This document shows, in pieces, positions 2,792 to 34,762 of a DNA stretch of 64,000 bases. Every line of letters begins with the position of its first letter. Position 1 is the stretch's first letter. The stretch is from an uncultured Candidatus Binatia bacterium (GTDB lineage: Bacteria > Desulfobacterota > Binatia > UBA9968 > JAJDTQ01): contig OZ244070.1 of the NCBI GenBank assembly GCA_965215605.1, positions 640,001 through 704,000 of the forward strand, in the 5' to 3' direction. The translations under genes and the position numbers were made by a program. The notes under the pieces are model-generated. The model saw only the letters and a list, made by a program, of their open reading frames with translations, had not been told where the DNA came from and searched no databases.

Positions 2792-3745
2792 ATGGACAGT
2801 TCCTGTTTCTCGTCAGTTCGGGACGATAACGCCGCTGGCGCCAACGCGCAGCAATGGCAGTTCGCGTACCGTGAAGCCCTGAGTCCATACATCATCAGAC
2901 GGATCCTGATCATCGTCGGCCTCTACCTCGGTTCGTACAGCGCCATCTGCCCCCTGGGCACCAACGACGCCCCATGGGTTCAGCGCCTGGCCTATTTCGG
3001 CCTGTGTGCGGTCTTGTGCACCCCGCTGTGCCACGCCGAGTACGTGGTGACGCTCTACCTCACGCGGTTCTGGACGAAATGCCGCATCGCGTTCGCGGTT
3101 TCCGCGTACACACTGATCGCCGCGTCGAGTTCCACCGCCATCGCGTACGGAGTCGACACGATGTTCCATAGGGAACTCGCCGCCTACGGTTTACCGGTGG
3201 TGCTCCTGTTCATGACGCTGTCCGTCGTGCTGTGCACCGCGGTCGTCCACTACCTGGTCGCCCAACGCGTGAGAGAGGAATCCGCTGGTGCTCCGGAAAC
3301 GGAGCCGGTTCCCGGACCGGCTCCGCCCGACCTTCCCGCCAGCCGCCCGGAGAGCCGGGCGGAACCCCTCCCGGCAACCCTGCAAACCCCATCCCTGTTC
3401 CTCGACCGCGTGGACCCGGAGATCGGGCGGGACGTCATCTTTCTCAAGATGAGCGATCATTACGTGGAGGTCGTCACCGCCAGGGGCCGCTGCGCCATCC
3501 TGATGCGTTTCACCGACGCCGTCGCGGAACTCGGCGGCGAGGGCGTTCGCGTCCACCGTTCCTACTGGGTCGCTTACCGCCATGTGCATGGTTGGACGAG
3601 ACGCAACCAACGCACGGCGCTGCGGCTCGACGGCGACCACGTGGTTCCGGTCAGCCGTACCTACCTCGGCGCCGCACGGGCAGCGCTCGATCGTTATCGC
3701 GCCAGCGTCCACGCCACCGGCCGTCCACCCTCCGAGCACGCTTGA
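2792..3745 (+). CDS. Membrane-anchored LytTR-family DNA-binding protein
   Basis: Four hydrophobic helices, Pro-rich linker, C-terminal DHYVEV...RVHRSYWVA...VPVSRTY LytTR motifs. Confidence 0.85.
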   Translation: MDSSCFSSVRDDNAAGANAQQWQFAYREALSPYIIRRILIIVGLYLGSYSAICPLGTNDAPWVQRLAYFGLCAVLCTPLCHAEYVVTLYLTRFWTKCRIAFAVSAYTLIAASSSTAIAYGVDTMFHRELAAYGLPVVLLFMTLSVVLCTAVVHYLVAQRVREESAGAPETEPVPGPAPPDLPASRPESRAEPLPATLQTPSLFLDRVDPEIGRDVIFLKMSDHYVEVVTARGRCAILMRFTDAVAELGGEGVRVHRSYWVAYRHVHGWTRRNQRTALRLDGDHVVPVSRTYLGAARAALDRYRASVHATGRPPSEHA

Positions 3746-3771
3746 CAGTCGTCACGGGCGGAGTCTATAAA
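3742..3771 (+). promoter_or_regulatory. Sigma70-type promoter
   Basis: TTGACA (3742-3747), 18 nt, TATAAA (3766-3771) in a high-GC background. Confidence 0.65.
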
Positions 3772-3774
3772 TGA

Positions 3775-3965
3775 GGCTCGCTCGGAAGGTCATGCGGAAC
3801 GTCAATGCCTTGGCGCGGTCCAAGAGTGCTCCTGCCCGGCCGCGCCGTCCTGGGTTCCCAGCAGCGACATCGTCCGTTCATGAAATCCTAAGGAAATGAC
3901 GCCTCGAGGCGTCATTTCGAGCACTTGCATCGGTGAGCCGACCCCCGCGTCTGGCGCGGGGCGGC
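3775..3965 (+). ncRNA. Candidate structured ncRNA / cis-regulatory leader (unassigned family)
   Basis: Closing stem 3775-3784/3931-3939; stem 3812-3820/3838-3846; pseudoknot 3825-3831/3919-3925; perfect 26-bp palindrome 3893-3918; terminator-like hairpin 3937-3965. Confidence 0.5.
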
Positions 3966-4013
3966 AATTCGTTTCGTGTCTACGACCACAAGGAACCGCA
4001 AGGAGGTTTGAGC

Positions 4014-5003
4014 ATGGCGACAAATTTGAAGTTCGGACTGCTGTTGCCCCATTTCGGGGATCAGGGATCGGTCGAGAAGTGCATCGAGGGGTCGAAGCTA
4101 GCCGAGTCGTTGGGATTCGACTCCGTCTGGGTCCGCGACCATCTGGTCTTCGAGCCCCACGGCATGGAAGGCACGGACAATACCCATATCGAGTGCGTCG
4201 CGATCCTGTCGGCGATCTCGTCGGTGTGCAAGAAGCTGATCCTGGGCTCGGGTACGATGATCTCCCACAGGCACCCGATCCACCTCGCCCAGTGCATGGC
4301 GGCCCTGAGCGTGCTGGCCGACGGCAAGGTCATCATGGGAATCGGCGCGGGAACGTTCCAGCACGAGTTCGCCGCGGCCGGGCTCAAGAACACTCGGGAC
4401 GACCGCTTCAACATGGCCAAGATCAACTCCAACATCGTACGGCGCCTCTGGGCCGGCGAGAAGGTAGACTACGAGGACGAGTACTACTCCTTCACGGATG
4501 TGGAGCTCAAGCCGACGCCGTTGGCGCCCATACCCATCTGGTACGGCGGCGGCACCCCGGCTTCGTGCCGGCGCGCCGTGGACTACTGCGACGGCTGGAT
4601 GCCCGGACGGATCCCGCTGCGCACTTTCCACAAATGCATCAAGTACCTTCATGACCTTTGCGACAAGGCCGGCAAGCCCATGGTTACCACCGGCGCCATC
4701 CCCATCACCAGCATCGCCAAGGACAAGGACACGGCGGTGAACAAGGTCAACGCGCCCGGGCTCATCAACGAGGGCAACAAGAAGCCCACCTGGGTCAAGC
4801 CCGAGTCCGGCACCTTCTCCAAACTCGAGGACATCGAGGGACTGCTGCTGGCGGGTACGCCCGAGGACATCGTCCGCGACACGCAGCGGTACGAGGAAGG
4901 CGGCCTCAACCACATCGTCTACGACCTCCGGTTCCGCTACGCCGACTGGTACGAGCAGATCGAGCTGTTGGGCAAGGAAGTCCTGCCGGCGGTGCGCGCC
5001 TAG
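4014..5003 (+). CDS. LLM-class flavin/F420-dependent oxidoreductase
   Basis: FGLLLP...GFDSVWVRDH, PIWYGG...DGWMP luciferase-like motifs; AGGAGG RBS. Confidence 0.9.
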   Translation: MATNLKFGLLLPHFGDQGSVEKCIEGSKLAESLGFDSVWVRDHLVFEPHGMEGTDNTHIECVAILSAISSVCKKLILGSGTMISHRHPIHLAQCMAALSVLADGKVIMGIGAGTFQHEFAAAGLKNTRDDRFNMAKINSNIVRRLWAGEKVDYEDEYYSFTDVELKPTPLAPIPIWYGGGTPASCRRAVDYCDGWMPGRIPLRTFHKCIKYLHDLCDKAGKPMVTTGAIPITSIAKDKDTAVNKVNAPGLINEGNKKPTWVKPESGTFSKLEDIEGLLLAGTPEDIVRDTQRYEEGGLNHIVYDLRFRYADWYEQIELLGKEVLPAVRA

Positions 5004-5025
5004 GCGCCGGACCGACCGGACGAGG

Positions 5026-5057
5026 CGGCAGGGGCGACCGGTCCGTCGCCCCTGCCG
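5026..5057. repeat. REP-like intergenic palindrome
   Basis: CGGCAGGGGCGAC-N6-GTCGCCCCTGCCG, perfect 13-bp stem. Confidence 0.6.
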
Positions 5058-5109
5058 GAGATCGTCCCGCCGACATTTGCCGCGGCGCAGACCACGATGG
5101 GAGAGCCAC

Positions 5110-6024
5110 ATGCAGACAGAGGACGTCACTTTCTACAGCGAGGGCTACAAGGTCCACGGCACCATGTACCTGCCGGACGGCGACGCGGGCAAACCCTGGC
5201 CGGGCATCGTCCAGGGCCCGGGTTTTCTGGGTCTCAAGGACGCCAAGCACTACATCCTGATGTTCGAGCGGCTGTGCGAGGCCGGCTACGCCTGCCTGTG
5301 CTTCGACTACCGCGGCTGGGGCCAGAGCGAGGGGCCGCAAAAGGGGTGGGTCATGCCCGCCTGGCAGGCGGAAGACATCCGCAACGCCATCACCTACATG
5401 GAGACCCGTGACGACGTGGACTCCGACCGCATCGCCACCTACGGCTCCGGCGGCACCGGCGGCGGCAACGCTGTGCTGGTGGGGGCCGCCGACGAGCGGG
5501 TCAAGGCCGTGGTGTGCTACCTCGGCGTGTGCAACGGCCGCGACTGGCTTCATTCCATGCGCCGGGAGTACGAGTGGATCGACTACCTCAAGCGCATCGA
5601 GGAAGACCGCCGGCAACGGGTACTGAACGGTTCCGGCGAACTGGTGGCGGCGCGCGAGGAGATCATGGTGCAGACCCCGGAGCGCAAGACCACCAATATC
5701 AAGAAGGAAGTGGCGTCGAAGATTCCCAACCAGATGCCGCTGCAGTGCGCCGACGCCATCCTGGACTACGCGCCGGAGGACGTCGTCCACAAGATCTCGC
5801 CTCGCGGCGTCCTGTTCGTCGCCGTGGAGTACGACGCCACCACGCCCGAGGAACACTCCATCCGCATGTACGAGAAGGCCGGAGAGCCCAAGAGACTCGT
5901 CATGCTGAAGAAGACGACCCATTACGGCGTCTACAACGATTACTTCGACCAGATCGCCGGCGAGGTGGTGGACTGGTACAACCGCCACCTGAAGTACGAC
6001 CGCATCGGCATTACCGAACCGTAG
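5110..6024 (+). CDS. Alpha/beta-fold hydrolase (S9/S15-like)
   Basis: FDYRGWGQSEG motif, elbow GSGGTGGG, C-terminal D and H (THY). Confidence 0.82.
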   Translation: MQTEDVTFYSEGYKVHGTMYLPDGDAGKPWPGIVQGPGFLGLKDAKHYILMFERLCEAGYACLCFDYRGWGQSEGPQKGWVMPAWQAEDIRNAITYMETRDDVDSDRIATYGSGGTGGGNAVLVGAADERVKAVVCYLGVCNGRDWLHSMRREYEWIDYLKRIEEDRRQRVLNGSGELVAAREEIMVQTPERKTTNIKKEVASKIPNQMPLQCADAILDYAPEDVVHKISPRGVLFVAVEYDATTPEEHSIRMYEKAGEPKRLVMLKKTTHYGVYNDYFDQIAGEVVDWYNRHLKYDRIGITEP

Positions 6025-6116
6025 GGACAACGATGGAGAGTTCGGCGGGGGTCAGGCCCTCACCGAACTCGAAGGATGGGTAACCGTTTGAGACCAAAGG
6101 GCGAGGAGTTTTGATC

Positions 6117-7131
6117 ATGGGCAAGTTCGAATTCGGCATCCGGGTGCCCAACTCGGGACCGCTCTCCAGCAAGGAGAACATCGTCAAGGCTGCGCAGAAC
6201 TCCGAGGAGCTGGGCTTCGACACCATCTGGCTCCACGACCACGTGGTCTGGAGCTCGGAGATGCACCGGCACCACATTTCCTCGGGTGCCGCCGAGGCCC
6301 TCACGGATGCCCAGGAGGCCAACTTCTTCGAGTGCATGACCACCATGTCGTACTTGGCCGCGAAGACGAAGAACATCCAGATCGGCGTGGCCTGCCTGGT
6401 GATGCCCCTGCGCAACCCCATCTACGCGGCCAAGCAGTGCGCCACCCTGGACCACCTGTGCGACGGGCGGTTGCTGGTGGGCGTGGGGCTCGGCTCCAAG
6501 GCCACCCGCGATTCCAGCGAGTTCGACGTATTCGAGGTGCCCATCAAGGGCCGGGGCAACCGCACCGACGAGTACATCGAGGCCATGAAGGCCATCTGGA
6601 CCCAGCCCATGGCCTCCTACGAGGGCAAGTACCTCAAGTTCGACAACGCCGAGATCCACCCCAAGCCGCTGCAGAAGCCCCACCCTCCGGTGTGGGTAGG
6701 CGGCTGGATGGACCAGGCGGCGGTGCGCGCCGGCCGTTACGGCGAGGGCTGGATCCCCGGCTGGCTGTCACCCAAGGAGATGGCGCGGGGCTGCGAGCTC
6801 CTCAACAAGGCGGCCGAGGACGCCGGCCGGGACCCCGCGGGGATCAAGATCGCGGTGGAGAAACTGGCCTGCATCGCCCGCACCCGGGACGAGGCCATGA
6901 CCCTCGCGCTGCCCACCATCCGCGAAAGCTCTCACACCTACGAGCGCGACGTGGACAACATCCAGTTCGCCCTCGACCGCCACATCATCGGATCGGTGGA
7001 TGACGTCCGCCGCCGCATCGACGAGTTCATCGAGGCCGGCGTGCAGCACTTCGAGCTCAAGCTCATCTACCCGGACATGGACACCATGCAGAAGGAGATG
7101 CTGCTCTGGTCGGAGGAGATCATACCGCACT

Positions 7132-7139
<8 letters not shown>
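6117..7139 (+). CDS. LLM-class flavin/F420-dependent oxidoreductase
   Basis: GFDTIWLHDH, ATLDHLCDGR, PKPLQKPHPPVWVGG. Confidence 0.9.
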
Positions 7140-7628
<489 letters not shown>

Positions 7629-7632
<4 letters not shown>

Positions 7633-9929
7633 GCGAGGACAATAGCCGCGACTTCGAGGTGGTCAACCGCTCGGTGCCGCGCCGCGACGGCCGCGCCAAG
7701 GTGTCGGGCCGGGCACTCTACGTGAGCGACGTCAAGCTCGCGGGCATGGCCTACGCCAAGGTGCTGCGGAGCCCCTACGCCCACGCGGCCATCGTCTCCA
7801 TGGACACCTCCCGGGCCGAGGCCCACCCCGGCGTGTACAACGTGCTGCGGGGCGACGATTTGGAAGGGCTGAACCCGTATTTCGGCCACGCCGTCAAGGA
7901 CCATCCGCTGGTGGCCATCGACAAGGTCCGCTACGCCGGCGAGCCCGTGGCCGCGGTCATCGCCGAGGACGAGCTCACCGCCTACGAGGCCCTGGAGCTC
8001 ATCGACGTCGAGTACGAAGAGCTGCCGGCGGTGATGGAGCCCCAGGAGGCGCTGGCGGGGGACGCGCCGCTGCTCCACCAGCGCCAGTTCGAGGCCGGCG
8101 CGCTGCGCGGGTTCGAAGGAGAGGTCACCGCGGGCCGGGGCAGCAACCTGTGCCAGGAGCACCACATCAAGTGGGGGGACGTCGACGAGGCGTTCGCCAC
8201 GGCCGCGGCCGTGGCGGAGGGCGAGTACTACTTTCCCATGGCCTATGCCTACGCCATGGAGCCCTACGTGGCCATCGCCGAGGTGGGCGACGACAGCGTC
8301 ACCATCTACTCCTCGGCCCAGCACCCCTTCATGGTGCGGCACGACCTCAAGACCATCTTCGACATGCCGGTGAGCCAGATCCGCTTGATCGTGCCGTTCG
8401 TGGGCGGCGGCTACGGCAGCAAGTCCTATACCAAGATCGAGCCGCTGGTTTCGGCCTGCGCGTGGAAGGCGCGGCGCCCGGTGAAGCTCCAGCTCAGCGT
8501 CGAAGAAGCCATGCTGACCACCCGCGGCGACGACGCCCTCACCTGGATGCGCACGGCGGTGGACGCCGACGGCAAGATCATCGCGCGCCAGGCGAATATC
8601 TACATGAACACCGGCGCCTACGCCGAGAACAGCCCTCTGGTGTGCGAGAAGTCGTCCAACCGCTGCGTCGGACCCTACGCCATCCCCAACGTCCAGATCG
8701 ACAACCACATGGTCTACACCAACACGGTGCCGGCCAGCTCCTTCCGGGGCTTCGGCTGCGCCCAGGTGACCATGGCCGGCGAGTCCCAGATCGACGAACT
8801 TGCGGCCAAGATCGGCATGGACCCCTACGAGTTCCGCGTGCTCAACGCGGCGCGGCCCAGGCAGGAGTTCTTCCCTGGCATGCGCCCCTTCGACGGCACC
8901 CTGACCGAGGACCTCAAGATCGTCGCCGACAACATCGGCTGGAAGGAGCCGCTGCCCGCCGGCCACGGGCGCAGCATCGGCTGCTCCGCCAGCGACGCCG
9001 GCGCCTATCCGCTCACCTCCACGGCCGTCCGCGTGCACGCCGACGGCTCGGCGTCGCTGATGATCGGCAGCACGGAGTTGGGCCAAGGCAGCCACACCGT
9101 GCTGCCGCAGATTGCCGCCGAGGAGCTCGGCATACCCTTCGACCTGGTCCGGGTCGTGTCTTCCGACACCGCCATCACGCCCTACGATCGGTCCACCGGC
9201 GCCAGCCGCACCACCACCCTCATGGGCCGGGCGGTGCAGGAGGCCAGCCGGGAGGCCATCGAGCAGATGGCGCGCATGGCCGCGGACGTGCTGGGAGTCG
9301 AGGAATCGGAGATTCAGCCGGTTCGCGGCGGCATCACCTGCGGCGAAGCGAGGCTCAACTGGTCCGAGGTGCTGACCCGCTACTACAAGCTGCCGGACGG
9401 CGAGGTCATCGGCCGCGCGTACATCCGCAAGGACAAGGACTTCGCCCAGTTGCCGGTGTTCTGGGAAGCCGCCTCCACCGGCATCGAGGTATCCGTGGAC
9501 GAGGAGACCGGCAAGGTCACCATGGAGAAGCTCGGCACCTGCGGCGACGTGGGCCTGGCCATCAATCCGGCGCTGGCCGAGGGGCAGGACATCGGCGCCG
9601 CCACCACCGGCATGGGCATCGGCATGTTCGAGGAGCTGGAGTTCGACCGCAACCAGTTGCTCAACGGCAACCTGCTGGAATACCGCCTGCCGCGCTTCTC
9701 CGACATGCCGCGGACGGTGAAGCTGGAGCTGGTGCAGAACCGGGACGGGGTGGGACCCTACGGCGCCAAGGGCGGCGGCGAGGCATCCCTCAACTCGCTG
9801 CCCGCCAACATCGCCAACGCGGTGTACAACGCCACCGGCGCGCGCATTCGCCGGGCGCCGCTCACGCCGGAGAAGGTCTGGCGCGCGATCCGGGAAGCCC
9901 GCGCCGCACGTGGAGAGAACGAATCATGA
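7629..9929 (+). CDS. Xanthine dehydrogenase-family molybdopterin-binding large subunit
   Basis: GGGYGSK, SSFRGFG, ELGQG, KGGGE motifs; ATGA overlap with the small subunit. Confidence 0.93.
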
Positions 9930-10795
9930 TGCCGCTGCGACGCTTCGCCATCCACCGCCCGGCCGACCTGAGCGAGGCCGCGGAGATGCTCGAGCACTAT
10001 GGTGAGGACGGCACCCTGTACGCCGGCGGCACCGAACTGCTCCTGGCCATGCGGCACGACCTGCTACGTTACCAGCACCTGATCGACATCAAGGCCGTGC
10101 GAGGCCTCGACGGCATCGAGCGCCGGGATGGGCACCTGCACATCGGCGCCGCCGCCACCCACCGGACCGTCGAGCGCTCCGCCGTGGTGCGGGAGTTCCT
10201 TCCGGTCATGGCCGACGTGGCAGCCAACGTCGCCAATGTGCGCGTGCGCGCCACCGGCACGCTGGGCGGGAATCTCGCCTTCGCCGAGCCCCACTCCGAT
10301 CCGGCGACCCTGCTGCTGGCCCTGGGCGGCACCATCCGGGCGCAAGGCAAATCGGGCGAACGGACGCTTGCCATGGACGAGCTTCTGGCCGGCGCCTATG
10401 AGAACTCCTTGGCGCGGGACGAGGTCCTGACCGGCGTGGACGTCCCGCTGCCGGCACCGTCACAGCGCTCGGCCTACCTCAAGTTCCAGGTACACGAGCG
10501 GCCCTTGCTCGGGCTGGCGCTCTCGCTTGCGCTTGACGATGACAGCGGGGAGATCCGCGAGGCCCGTTGCGCGGTGGGTTGCGTGAGCCCCACGCCGTGT
10601 CGTTCGACCGCCGCGGAGGGCCTCATCGCCGGGCCCGCGGATTCGGTCGAACAGCGGCTGCAACAGGCCGGCGAAGCCCTCGCCGACGAGGCCGCGCTGA
10701 CGGACGACCGCGAGGGTAGCGCCGAGTACAAACGCCACCTCATCGGCGTGCTGCTGCGCCGCGCCGCGAAGAGGTGCCTCGACGGCAACAGCTAA
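9926..10795 (+). CDS. Molybdenum hydroxylase FAD-binding medium subunit
   Basis: AGGTELL and ATGTLGGN...SD motifs; ATGA overlap. Confidence 0.92.
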   Translation: MMPLRRFAIHRPADLSEAAEMLEHYGEDGTLYAGGTELLLAMRHDLLRYQHLIDIKAVRGLDGIERRDGHLHIGAAATHRTVERSAVVREFLPVMADVAANVANVRVRATGTLGGNLAFAEPHSDPATLLLALGGTIRAQGKSGERTLAMDELLAGAYENSLARDEVLTGVDVPLPAPSQRSAYLKFQVHERPLLGLALSLALDDDSGEIREARCAVGCVSPTPCRSTAAEGLIAGPADSVEQRLQQAGEALADEAALTDDREGSAEYKRHLIGVLLRRAAKRCLDGNS

Positions 10796-33241: not shown

Positions 33242-34762
33242 ATGATTGAAGGAATCCTCGCCGGTCTGTCCACCGCCTTCAGCATTCAGAACCTCCTCAT
33301 GGTCGTTGCCGGGTGCCTGATCGGAACTCTGATCGGCATGCTGCCGGGCCTCGGCCCCATGTCGATCATCGCCATCATGATCCCCATCGCCATACAGATC
33401 GGCGACCCCGCGGCCGCGCTGATCCTGTTGGCAGGCGTGTACTACGGCGCCATCTTCGGCGGCTCCACGTCCTCCATCCTCATCAACGCGCCAGGCGTGG
33501 CCGGCACCGTCGCCACGGCGTTCGACGGCTACCCCATGGCGCGTCAGGGGCAGGCCGGCAAGGCCCTGACCGTCGCGGCCATCGGGTCTTTCTCCGGCGG
33601 CACCATCGGCGCCATCCTGCTGATGGGGTTCGCGCCGGGGTTGGCCACCGTGGCGCTGCTGTTCCACTCCGCCGAGTATTTCGCGCTGATGGTGGTGGGC
33701 CTCGCCGCCATCGCCGCCTTCGCGGGCTCGGGCCAGGTCGCCAAGGCCTTGATGATGACCGTCCTGGGCGTGATGCTGGCCACCGTGGGCGAAAGCGCCC
33801 TGTTCAACGCACCGCGCTTCACCTTCGGTATCCAGGATCTGCAGAGCGGCATCAGCTTCATTACGCTGGCCATGGCGCTGTTCGCGTTGCCCGAGGCCCT
33901 GTACCTGGTCCTCAACCCGAAGCGTTCGGAACGCGAGGGAGACGACGGCCGCAAAATCGCCAACCTGCGCATCACGCGCGAAGAGGCCAGGGAGATCGCC
34001 CCGGTCATCGGCCGCCAGTCGCTCCAGGGTTTCTTCATCGGGGTGATGCCGGGCGCGGGGGCGACCATCGCATCGTTCCTCGGCTACGCGGTGGAACGCA
34101 ACATCGCCAAGGGGGAGGACCGGGCCAAGTTCGGCAAGGGTTCCATCAAGGGACTTGCCGCTCCGGAAACCGCCAACAACGCGGCCTGCACCGGCTCGTT
34201 CGTGCCGCTGCTCACCCTGGGCATTCCCGGGTCCGGCACCACCGCCATCCTGCTGGGCGCCCTCATCGCCCTCAACGTGGCGCCGGGGCCGCGCCTGATG
34301 GTGGACAATCCCTCCATCTTCTGGGCGGTGATCATTTCCATGTACCTCGGCAACGTCGTGCTGCTGATCCTCAACCTGCCGCTGATCCCGTACATCGCCA
34401 AGCTGCTGGAGATCCCCCGCAACTACCTGATCCCGTTCATCCTGTTCTTCACCATGATGGGCAGCTACATCGGCCAGAACAACGCCACCGAACTGCTGCT
34501 GCTCACCGGCATGGGGCTCGTGGCCACCGTCATGCGCATGGCCGGCTATCCGCTGGCGCCGATGCTCATCGGGTTCATTCTCGGGCCGCTGCTGGAAAAC
34601 AACTTCGCCCGTGCCATGAACCTCACCGACGGCATCAGCTTCATCTGGCAGCGGCCCATGACCCTGGCGCTGCTGGTCTTCGCGGTGGTGCTGATCTTCC
34701 TCCCGTCCATCCGCGCGGGCCTCGGACGGCTCAAGGGAAATGAAGCGGCCCAGGGCGACTGA
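33242..34762 (+). CDS. tctA: TTT large permease
   Basis: GMLPGLG, DGYPMA, APETANNA, LGIPG. Confidence 0.95.
   Translation: MIEGILAGLSTAFSIQNLLMVVAGCLIGTLIGMLPGLGPMSIIAIMIPIAIQIGDPAAALILLAGVYYGAIFGGSTSSILINAPGVAGTVATAFDGYPMARQGQAGKALTVAAIGSFSGGTIGAILLMGFAPGLATVALLFHSAEYFALMVVGLAAIAAFAGSGQVAKALMMTVLGVMLATVGESALFNAPRFTFGIQDLQSGISFITLAMALFALPEALYLVLNPKRSEREGDDGRKIANLRITREEAREIAPVIGRQSLQGFFIGVMPGAGATIASFLGYAVERNIAKGEDRAKFGKGSIKGLAAPETANNAACTGSFVPLLTLGIPGSGTTAILLGALIALNVAPGPRLMVDNPSIFWAVIISMYLGNVVLLILNLPLIPYIAKLLEIPRNYLIPFILFFTMMGSYIGQNNATELLLLTGMGLVATVMRMAGYPLAPMLIGFILGPLLENNFARAMNLTDGISFIWQRPMTLALLVFAVVLIFLPSIRAGLGRLKGNEAAQGD

Follow-up and report, generated by a model that had tools for sequence, protein, structure and literature searches.

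What is the function of the long non-coding segment that separates a gene for a membrane protein with a LytTR domain from an operon encoding two luciferase-like monooxygenases (LLM), an alpha/beta hydrolase and a molybdenum-cofactor (Moco) dehydrogenase in an uncultured Candidatus Binatia bacterium? We analysed 64,000 nucleotides (nt) of its DNA (contig OZ244070.1 of assembly GCA_965215605.1, forward-strand positions 640,001 to 704,000; this whole stretch is called the window and its numbering is used throughout), in which the segment begins at position 3742 and ends shortly before the first LLM gene at 4014. A sequence-only reading of the window had proposed here a pseudoknotted, riboswitch-like RNA behind a sigma-70 promoter. 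Our best explanation, to which we give slightly less than even confidence, is that the segment encodes a cis-acting structured 5ʹ leader of about 235 nt on the messenger RNA (mRNA) of the LLM / hydrolase / LLM / Moco-dehydrogenase operon. Two + strand hairpins within it, P2 (3812-3846) and P4 (3893-3918), were shown to be under selection for RNA pairing. The proposal of a structured RNA behind the promoter was borne out to this extent: the leader is promoter-proximal and non-coding, holds two hairpins kept by selection and belongs to no Rfam family.

The sigma-70-type promoter, as read from the sequence, occupies 3742-3771 (+), with TTGACA at 3742-3747, a spacer of 18 nt and TATAAA at 3766-3771. 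Its position had been given correctly in the sequence-only reading. The motif TTGACA-N18-TATAAA occurred once in the window and was matched in 0 of 100 shuffles, and both TTGACA and GTCTAT were invariant in 23 of 23 aligned leader sequences. This invariance of the promoter hexamers was the only clear sequence-level constraint that we noticed along the promoter and leader. The DNA homology among relatives starts about 5 nt 5ʹ of the -35 box, and transcription would probably start at about 3778.

The leader was compared in 24 distinct promoter-to-start sequences, supplemented with variants carrying a deletion (G020), a replaced 5ʹ part (G002) and a miniature inverted-repeat transposable element (MITE; G012). 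Base pairs were counted on the leader alignments, and substitution events were then counted by parsimony on the leader's own tree; the LLM gene tree, which conflicts with the leader types, was unusable as a species tree. In that gene tree G009 is placed beside G008 and G006 beside G011, in disagreement with the leader types (L003-L029), which suggests either recombination among species at the locus or too little signal in the LLM gene.

Hairpin P2 (3812-3846, +) was correctly located in the sequence-only reading as a 9-bp stem, GGCGCGGTC at 3812-3820 with GGCCGCGCC at 3838-3846, and it encloses a 17-nt loop, CAAGAGUGCUCCUGCCC. In the alignments 93% of the P2 cells were paired, versus 27-57% with slid partners. 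Its pairing is kept by selection, with 15 pairing-preserving and 3 restoring events against 2 disrupting ones. Three pairs changed on both sides, as in the replacement of C-G by U-A at 3814/3844, and the covariation score was reached by 0 of 500 shuffles. The U-G wobble at 3819/3839, present in 17 of the 22 distinct sequences, pairs only in + strand RNA; DNA or a - strand transcript would have a mismatch there.

Hairpin P4 (3893-3918, +) is formed by a perfect 13+13 palindrome, GAAAUGACGCC-N4-GGCGUCAUUUC, with an 11-bp stem and a variable tetraloop. The palindrome lies exactly where the earlier reading had placed it, abutting the proposed pseudoknot strand, and its pairing in RNA is likewise kept by selection. 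P4 was present in 24 of the 24 sequences examined, where the cells other than Watson-Crick pairs comprised 18 G-U or U-G, one A-A and two apparent A-C. The A-A mismatch belongs to G020, which also lost the 5ʹ part of the leader, and the two A-C cells come from an extra A in the arm; the 18 wobble cells pair only as + strand RNA. A compensated change was found in G013 (G-C to A-U, on both sides), and G009/G017 show the series A-U to G-U to G-C. The parsimony run listed 7 disrupting events for P4, five of them in L027-L029, which have no homologous P4, and two at 3893/3918 that represent alignment offsets. Counted by lineage and by eye, about nine uncompensated transitions, from A to G or from C to U, fall in the 5ʹ arm, whereas the 3ʹ arm has no mirror-image change (from U to C or from G to A). 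This strand asymmetry is predicted by a + strand RNA helix and not by a symmetric DNA operator.

The asymmetry bears directly on a reading in which the segment acts as DNA, with the palindrome as the operator of a dimeric regulator, the repeats as LytTR sites and the RNA structure as incidental. Perfect 26-bp palindromes are typical of operators, the leader holds direct repeats (GTCATGC/GTCAATGC and CCGTYCWKG), and the LytTR gene is syntenic in the loci of the genus and absent from 57 loci of more distant LLM orthologs. LytTR proteins bind direct repeats with a phasing of about 21 nt; the repeat spacings observed here, 12 and 29 nt, are different. Moreover, the P4 substitutions allow G-T and not A-C while the centre of the tetraloop varies freely, and P2 keeps a T-G "mismatch" in 17 of the 22 sequences. 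In G012 (L019:1672-1918), a MITE-like element of about 197 nt, ending in 15-bp inverted repeats and flanked by a CTAGC/TAGC target duplication, was inserted exactly in the P4 tetraloop (homolog of 3904-3907). The insertion parts the half-sites by about 200 bp and both arms are left intact, still perfect. We therefore regard the operator reading, on the strength of these points, as distinctly unlikely. Repetitive extragenic palindromes (REP) were also considered as a comparison; P4 shares with palindromic operators and REP repeats a perfect 26-bp intergenic palindrome, but it differs in its single copy and in substitutions that obey one-strand RNA pairing. The palindrome occurs once in the window, at one locus in the genome and in 0 of 100 shuffles, so it is not a multicopy REP. 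The MITE itself is repeated, with at least 40 copies in G012 at 90-99% identity, and its inner palindrome has many copies in genome G000.

The remaining helices behaved differently. Homologs of the leader could be gathered and their covariation tested as the sequence-only reading had suggested, and two of its six proposed helices were supported by this comparison, while the pseudoknot helix 3825/3919 was not. The power of such a test is low with 24 distinct sequences whose neutral divergence is about 20-25%. The closing stem that was to join the ends of the RNA, GGCTCGC at 3775-3781 with GTGAGCC at 3933-3939, has 7 bp including one G-U in the source sequence; the complementarity is there, but it is not kept by selection, with 3 pairing-preserving versus 14 disrupting events. 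By eye, single mismatches occur in G008, G011, G022, G014, G027, G012 and G005, and the 3ʹ strand is missing in G004 and G013. Its extension, ATGCG at 3792-3796 with TGCAT at 3926-3930, also exists in the source but behaves as neutral, being 65% paired and mostly through G-U. For the 7-bp pseudoknot, AGTGCTC at 3825-3831 with GAGCACT at 3919-3925, perfect complementarity was confirmed in the source, yet among relatives the helix is not kept: 75% of cells were paired on alignment A1 without consistent compensation, 4 events kept the pairing versus 10 that disrupted it, and no compensation was seen when the loop (G004, G011) or the linker (the G015 clade) changed. A 5-bp core of it, UGCUC/GAGCA, is found in 14-20 of 23 sequences. 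The small CTGG/CCAG hairpin is present in the source sequence as proposed but is neutral-like, with 62% pairing and the region deleted in 4 of 23 sequences. In their changes, all four of these helices resemble neutral sequence.

The 5ʹ segment (3773-3811, +; GGCUCGCUCGGAAGGUCAUGCGGAACGUCAAUGCC) carries the direct repeat GUCAUGC / GUCAAUGC and has no supported structure in alignments A1 and A2. An extra hairpin suggested there by RNAalifold (3789-3796/3806-3814) was rejected, being 88% paired with 8 keeping versus 12 disrupting events. The variable and in part dispensable spacer between P2 and P4 (3847-3892, +) includes the CUGG/CCAG hairpin (3850-3861) and a better-kept CCGUUCAUGAAAUCC; mean pairwise identity over 3843-3872 is 0.45-0.61, and a 27-column stretch of the spacer is deleted in 4 of the 23 sequences. 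The linker (3919-3936, +; GAGCACUUGCAUCGGUGA) contains what would be the 3ʹ strands of both the pseudoknot and the stem extension. A pairing of CGGA with UCCG (3783-3786/3873-3876) is invariant and so uninformative. Three further partners, tried by eye, were rejected for want of compensation: the P2 loop with the Shine-Dalgarno sequence or start codon, the P2 5ʹ strand with ACCGCA near the ribosome site, and the segment 3788-3795 with the start codon. Complementarities of 7 nt are ordinary in this sequence (22 inverted pairs in 501 nt). The closing stem, the pseudoknot and the extra hairpin, in which pairing was kept in only 18-40% of events, serve as an internal control for P2 and P4, and their keeping rate fits the rough expectation of about 28% for random substitutions.

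A true riboswitch would depend on just these helices: its ligand-binding aptamer would be built from the closing stem and the loop-linker pseudoknot, and a terminator would be in competition with the 3ʹ strand of that stem. All of them exist in the source sequence, the pseudoknot core persists in the majority noted above, in many relatives GAGCC adjoins the base of the terminator or overlaps it, and the order of a better-kept 5ʹ part and then a variable terminator is a riboswitch-like layout. Against this stand the event counts of the closing stem and pseudoknot, the uncompensated changes in loop and linker, the seven relatives with mismatches in the closing stem and the two without its 3ʹ strand. 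Furthermore, the supported structure consists of two separate hairpins with no covarying multi-helix junction, the core is not conserved beyond the neutral rate, and the element, which is limited to one genus with a single locus per genome, is absent at the 57 more distant orthologs and has no Rfam match. We consequently give this reading very little credence. Of the riboswitch/attenuator proposal made in the sequence-only reading, the riboswitch part is thus unproven and unlikely, while an attenuator-type leader is plausible.

The last element of the leader is a terminator-like hairpin (3937-3976, +), GCCG-AC-CCCCGCG / CGCGGGG-CGGC with the loop UCUGG, followed by a U-rich tail AAUUCGUUUCG. 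CCCCGCG at 3943-3949 pairs with CGCGGGG at 3955-3961 on the base GCCG/CGGC, making an 11-bp bulged stem. By eye, a GC-rich hairpin with a pyrimidine- or U-rich tail, of the type AAUUCUUUUC, is found in about 15 of 23 sequences, some 40-48 nt before the start codon, and the sequence identity of the region is only 0.29-0.33. A hairpin that persists at an identity of about 0.3 fits a terminator whose sequence would be free to vary. The hairpin had been located correctly by the sequence-only reading and recurs in these relatives, but no conserved helix was found that would bear out its proposed competition for the 3ʹ strand of the closing stem. In G026 (L025:1225-1530) we noticed that the terminator-like region is replaced and that a second TTGACAG motif lies about 80 nt before the start codon. 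Elsewhere in the window, a 7-bp GC-rich hairpin with a U-poor tail (1565-1582, +) directly follows the stop codon of a prolyl-oligopeptidase gene and is a possible example of the form that terminators take in this organism.

With its own strong promoter, its hairpins and a terminator-like 3ʹ end, the segment could also encode a stand-alone, trans-acting small RNA of about 190 nt, the operon being expressed by read-through. The 40 nt or so before the ribosome site leave no room for a second promoter, though, and the element is single copy and always tied to this operon. Moreover, no segment is conserved above the neutral level as the mark of a seed. We hold this arrangement to be quite improbable.

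A search for known families placed the leader in none. With the Rfam 15 covariance models, including the raiA, FMN, Moco and NMT1 motifs, nothing reached the gathering threshold in this region of the window, the best matches at E up to 10 (14.5 and 10.9 bits) were only noise, and 12 homologous loci likewise gave no match, so that the novelty suggested by the sequence-only reading withstood the Rfam check. The leader is a candidate for a new structured 5ʹ leader that matches no described family, not a demonstrated new class. A full-text literature search combining Binatia and riboswitch gave no paper. Rfam also gave, at 34286-34413 (-), a full-model match of 81.8 bits to Cis8_sRNA (RF02646, "Ruegeria cis8 sRNA"), which is unexpected in a genome with relatives labelled Binatia. 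The earlier statement that the leader holds no credible open reading frame (ORF) also stood: its ORFs of 42 amino acids (+) and 73 amino acids (-) have no Pfam match, and no upstream ORF frame is kept among relatives. A leader-peptide attenuator was rejected, as no ORF is conserved: even the closest sequences, such as G000 and G022, do not share reading frames and stop codons. CsrA sites are GGA motifs and the ANTAR motif consists of tandem hexaloop hairpins. A CsrA target was rejected since no CsrA was found in the 97% complete genome, and an ANTAR target since the loops have 17, 4 and 5 nt and are not hexaloops; one ANTAR gene lies about 1.3 Mb away.

The distribution of the leader is narrow. 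Promoter and leader are single copy in the source genome (4.06 Mb). A DNA match to the stretch was obtained in 26 of 27 other genomes of the genus, and in 18 of these 26 it runs, at 69-94% identity, from about 5 nt 5ʹ of the -35 box to the start codon. The covariance model R1, which was built from alignment A2 and represents the 5ʹ part of the leader, gave one strong match (60-100 bits) in each of 24 genomes out of the 28 of the genus, and this operon was the site every time. Its matches of 20-28 bits elsewhere in the genomes, considered as second copies, were rejected as GC-rich chance or coding sequence. The position of the leader is constant, between the gene for the LytTR-domain membrane protein and the LLM / hydrolase / LLM / Moco-dehydrogenase operon. 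Neither the element nor its motifs were found in any of the 57 loci encoding more distant LLM orthologs (70-80% identity). A pattern scan of metagenomes returned 8 loci, of which 3 were true, adding one new sequence, and 5 were chance matches. The leader is confined to one uncultured genus and seems to have joined an older operon recently.

Several observations weigh against the cis-acting leader and should be set beside the evidence for it. First, the leader is not conserved above the synonymous sites of the neighbouring genes. The four-fold sites of the LLM gene have a mean pairwise identity of 0.745, and third-position identity to G000 is 0.66-0.90 in the first LLM, hydrolase and second LLM genes and 0.46-0.88 in a cupin gene; the leader has an identity to G000 of 0.40-0.93, and its blocks have mean pairwise identities of 0.29-0.88, namely 0.72-0.88 in the 5ʹ part, P4 and the ribosome site and 0.29-0.49 in the low-identity blocks 3843-3862 and 3943-3962. 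The alignability of the leader says little, because its conservation does not exceed this neutral level. Good alignment of an intergenic region across a young genus does not show constraint; in this case the evidence comes only from the direction that substitutions take in two helices. Second, the fold of 251 nt is unremarkable on the + strand (z -1.08; 26 of 200 shuffles folded as well) and has z -2.77 on the - strand. Third, the terminator-like region has a mean z of only -1.0 against dinucleotide shuffles, with 7 of 23 sequences below -1.5; a simple terminator scan does not call the 3937-3976 hairpin, 40 kb of the window held no excess of terminator-like sites, and no conserved antiterminator or other helix competing with the hairpin was found in the leader alignments. 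Fourth, the modules of the leader are separable, being lost and gained independently: G020 (L017) has a clean deletion equivalent to 3785-3874 in which P2 is gone, in G002 (L021) the promoter and 5ʹ part are replaced by a different promoter-like sequence and the 5ʹ arm of the palindrome is duplicated, and G006, G023 and G010 have neither P4 nor its linker. Finally, contigs of relatives (<95% identical) from two RNA libraries cover only the coding region, from 4016.

We nevertheless favour the cis-acting leader, because its promoter is unique and invariant with homology starting at the -35 box, because no leader ORF is conserved, and because pairing in P2 and P4 is kept while the rejected helices behave as the null. 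It is further favoured because the terminator-like hairpin persists in about 15 of 23 sequences at such low identity, because the MITE in G012 spares both arms of P4, and because the element is single copy and, wherever it was found in the genus (24 of 28 genomes), lies at this operon. The leader would be transcribed from the strong, invariant promoter abutting the stop codon of the LytTR gene, and the resulting RNA would carry P2 and P4 as two local hairpins, followed by a GC-rich hairpin with a U-rich tail that may function as a terminator about 40 nt before the ribosome-binding site. Acting in cis on the operon, it could cause a fraction of transcripts to stop at the P4/terminator region unless some factor intervenes. 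Attenuation would be the most likely mode; alternatively, the leader may set mRNA stability or translation.

In another reading the hairpins are constitutive and no conditional switch exists; they would stabilise the mRNA 5ʹ end or halt transcripts that read through from the LytTR gene. This agrees with the support for independent local hairpins only, with the failure to find a conserved alternative pairing, and with the loss of modules in some species while the operon was retained. It leaves unexplained why the leader is long and why more distant orthologs do without one, and sequence hardly separates it from an attenuating cis-acting leader. We consider it unlikely, though a serious alternative.

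The cis-acting leader resembles attenuation leaders and riboswitch expression platforms in several respects. In both, a promoter is followed by a long untranslated leader, and conserved hairpins stand 5ʹ of a variable GC-rich hairpin with a U-rich tail just before the ribosome site of a catabolic operon. In contrast to those systems, no conserved terminator/antiterminator alternative was found for it, it has no leader peptide or covarying multi-helix aptamer, and it occurs at one locus in one genus. With the raiA motif RNA it shares the character of a long GC-rich structured RNA of yet-unassigned function, but cmscan found no match to that motif, whether at the gathering score or with E relaxed to 10. 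The loose raiA-like topology seen in the sequence-only reading must be given up, as it rests on the pseudoknot and closing stem, neither of which is supported. HK022 put and Bacillus EAR are two-hairpin processive-antitermination RNAs. They resemble our leader in having promoter-proximal leader hairpins ahead of a long operon that contains terminator-like sites. They differ in that about 45 nt lie between P2 and P4 and that the two have been lost independently of each other in different species, and the Rfam comparison gave no match. In a bolder version, the cis-acting leader would be a regulatory RNA that is young and confined to the genus, working either as a riboswitch of narrow range or as an antitermination element like put. 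By sensing a substrate or factor, P2 and P4 would allow RNA polymerase through the P4/terminator region, and the whole would have arisen de novo with the LytTR arrangement. We think this scenario improbable.

Downstream of the terminator-like hairpin, the segment 3977-4016 (+) comprises a spacer, the Shine-Dalgarno sequence AAGGAGG (4000-4006) and the LLM start codon (4014-4016); CCGCAAGGAGG in the ribosome-site region is nearly invariant in the alignments. The start codon is at 4014 and not at 4015, and the ORF in frame from 4014 encodes a Bac_luciferase domain (Pfam, E 1.5e-40). According to Pfam and NCBIfam scans the operon extends over 4014-10795 (+), with LLM (4014-5003) as its first gene, an alpha/beta hydrolase with weak similarity to a lactonase family (5077-6024) as its second and another LLM (6111-7139) as its third. 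These are followed, on the same strand and with approximate gene starts, by the 2Fe-2S subunit (ORF 7000-7632), the Moco subunit (ORF 7422-9929) and the flavin adenine dinucleotide (FAD) subunit (within ORF 8150-10795) of a xanthine-dehydrogenase-family enzyme.

On the other side of the leader, the gene at 2792-3745 (+) encodes a 317-amino-acid protein with a C-terminal LytTR DNA-binding domain (Pfam LytTR, E 9.8e-13), and its stop codon overlaps the -35 box. A LytTR homolog is found directly upstream in 41 of 107 loci searched, all 41 belonging to the genus, and in 0 of the 57 distant LLM loci. The LytTR protein is a candidate regulator of the promoter. Within the genus the LytTR-domain proteins have 42-82% amino-acid identity, versus 91-99% for LLM. 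At the DNA level, too, the LytTR gene is far more diverged than the flanking genes, with third positions at about 0.55 versus about 0.8 in LLM, and the divergence boundary between it and 4014-7139 falls at the promoter (also in loci L033-L054).

The young sensing RNA, if it were real, would switch on a pathway of flavin/F420-type LLM and Moco hydroxylase enzymes in uncultured Binatia. More generally, the comparison with more distant orthologs that have no leader offers a view of an RNA leader as it forms. If the leader does regulate the operon, it would be among the first regulatory RNAs described in Binatia and would provide a handle on gene control in these bacteria.

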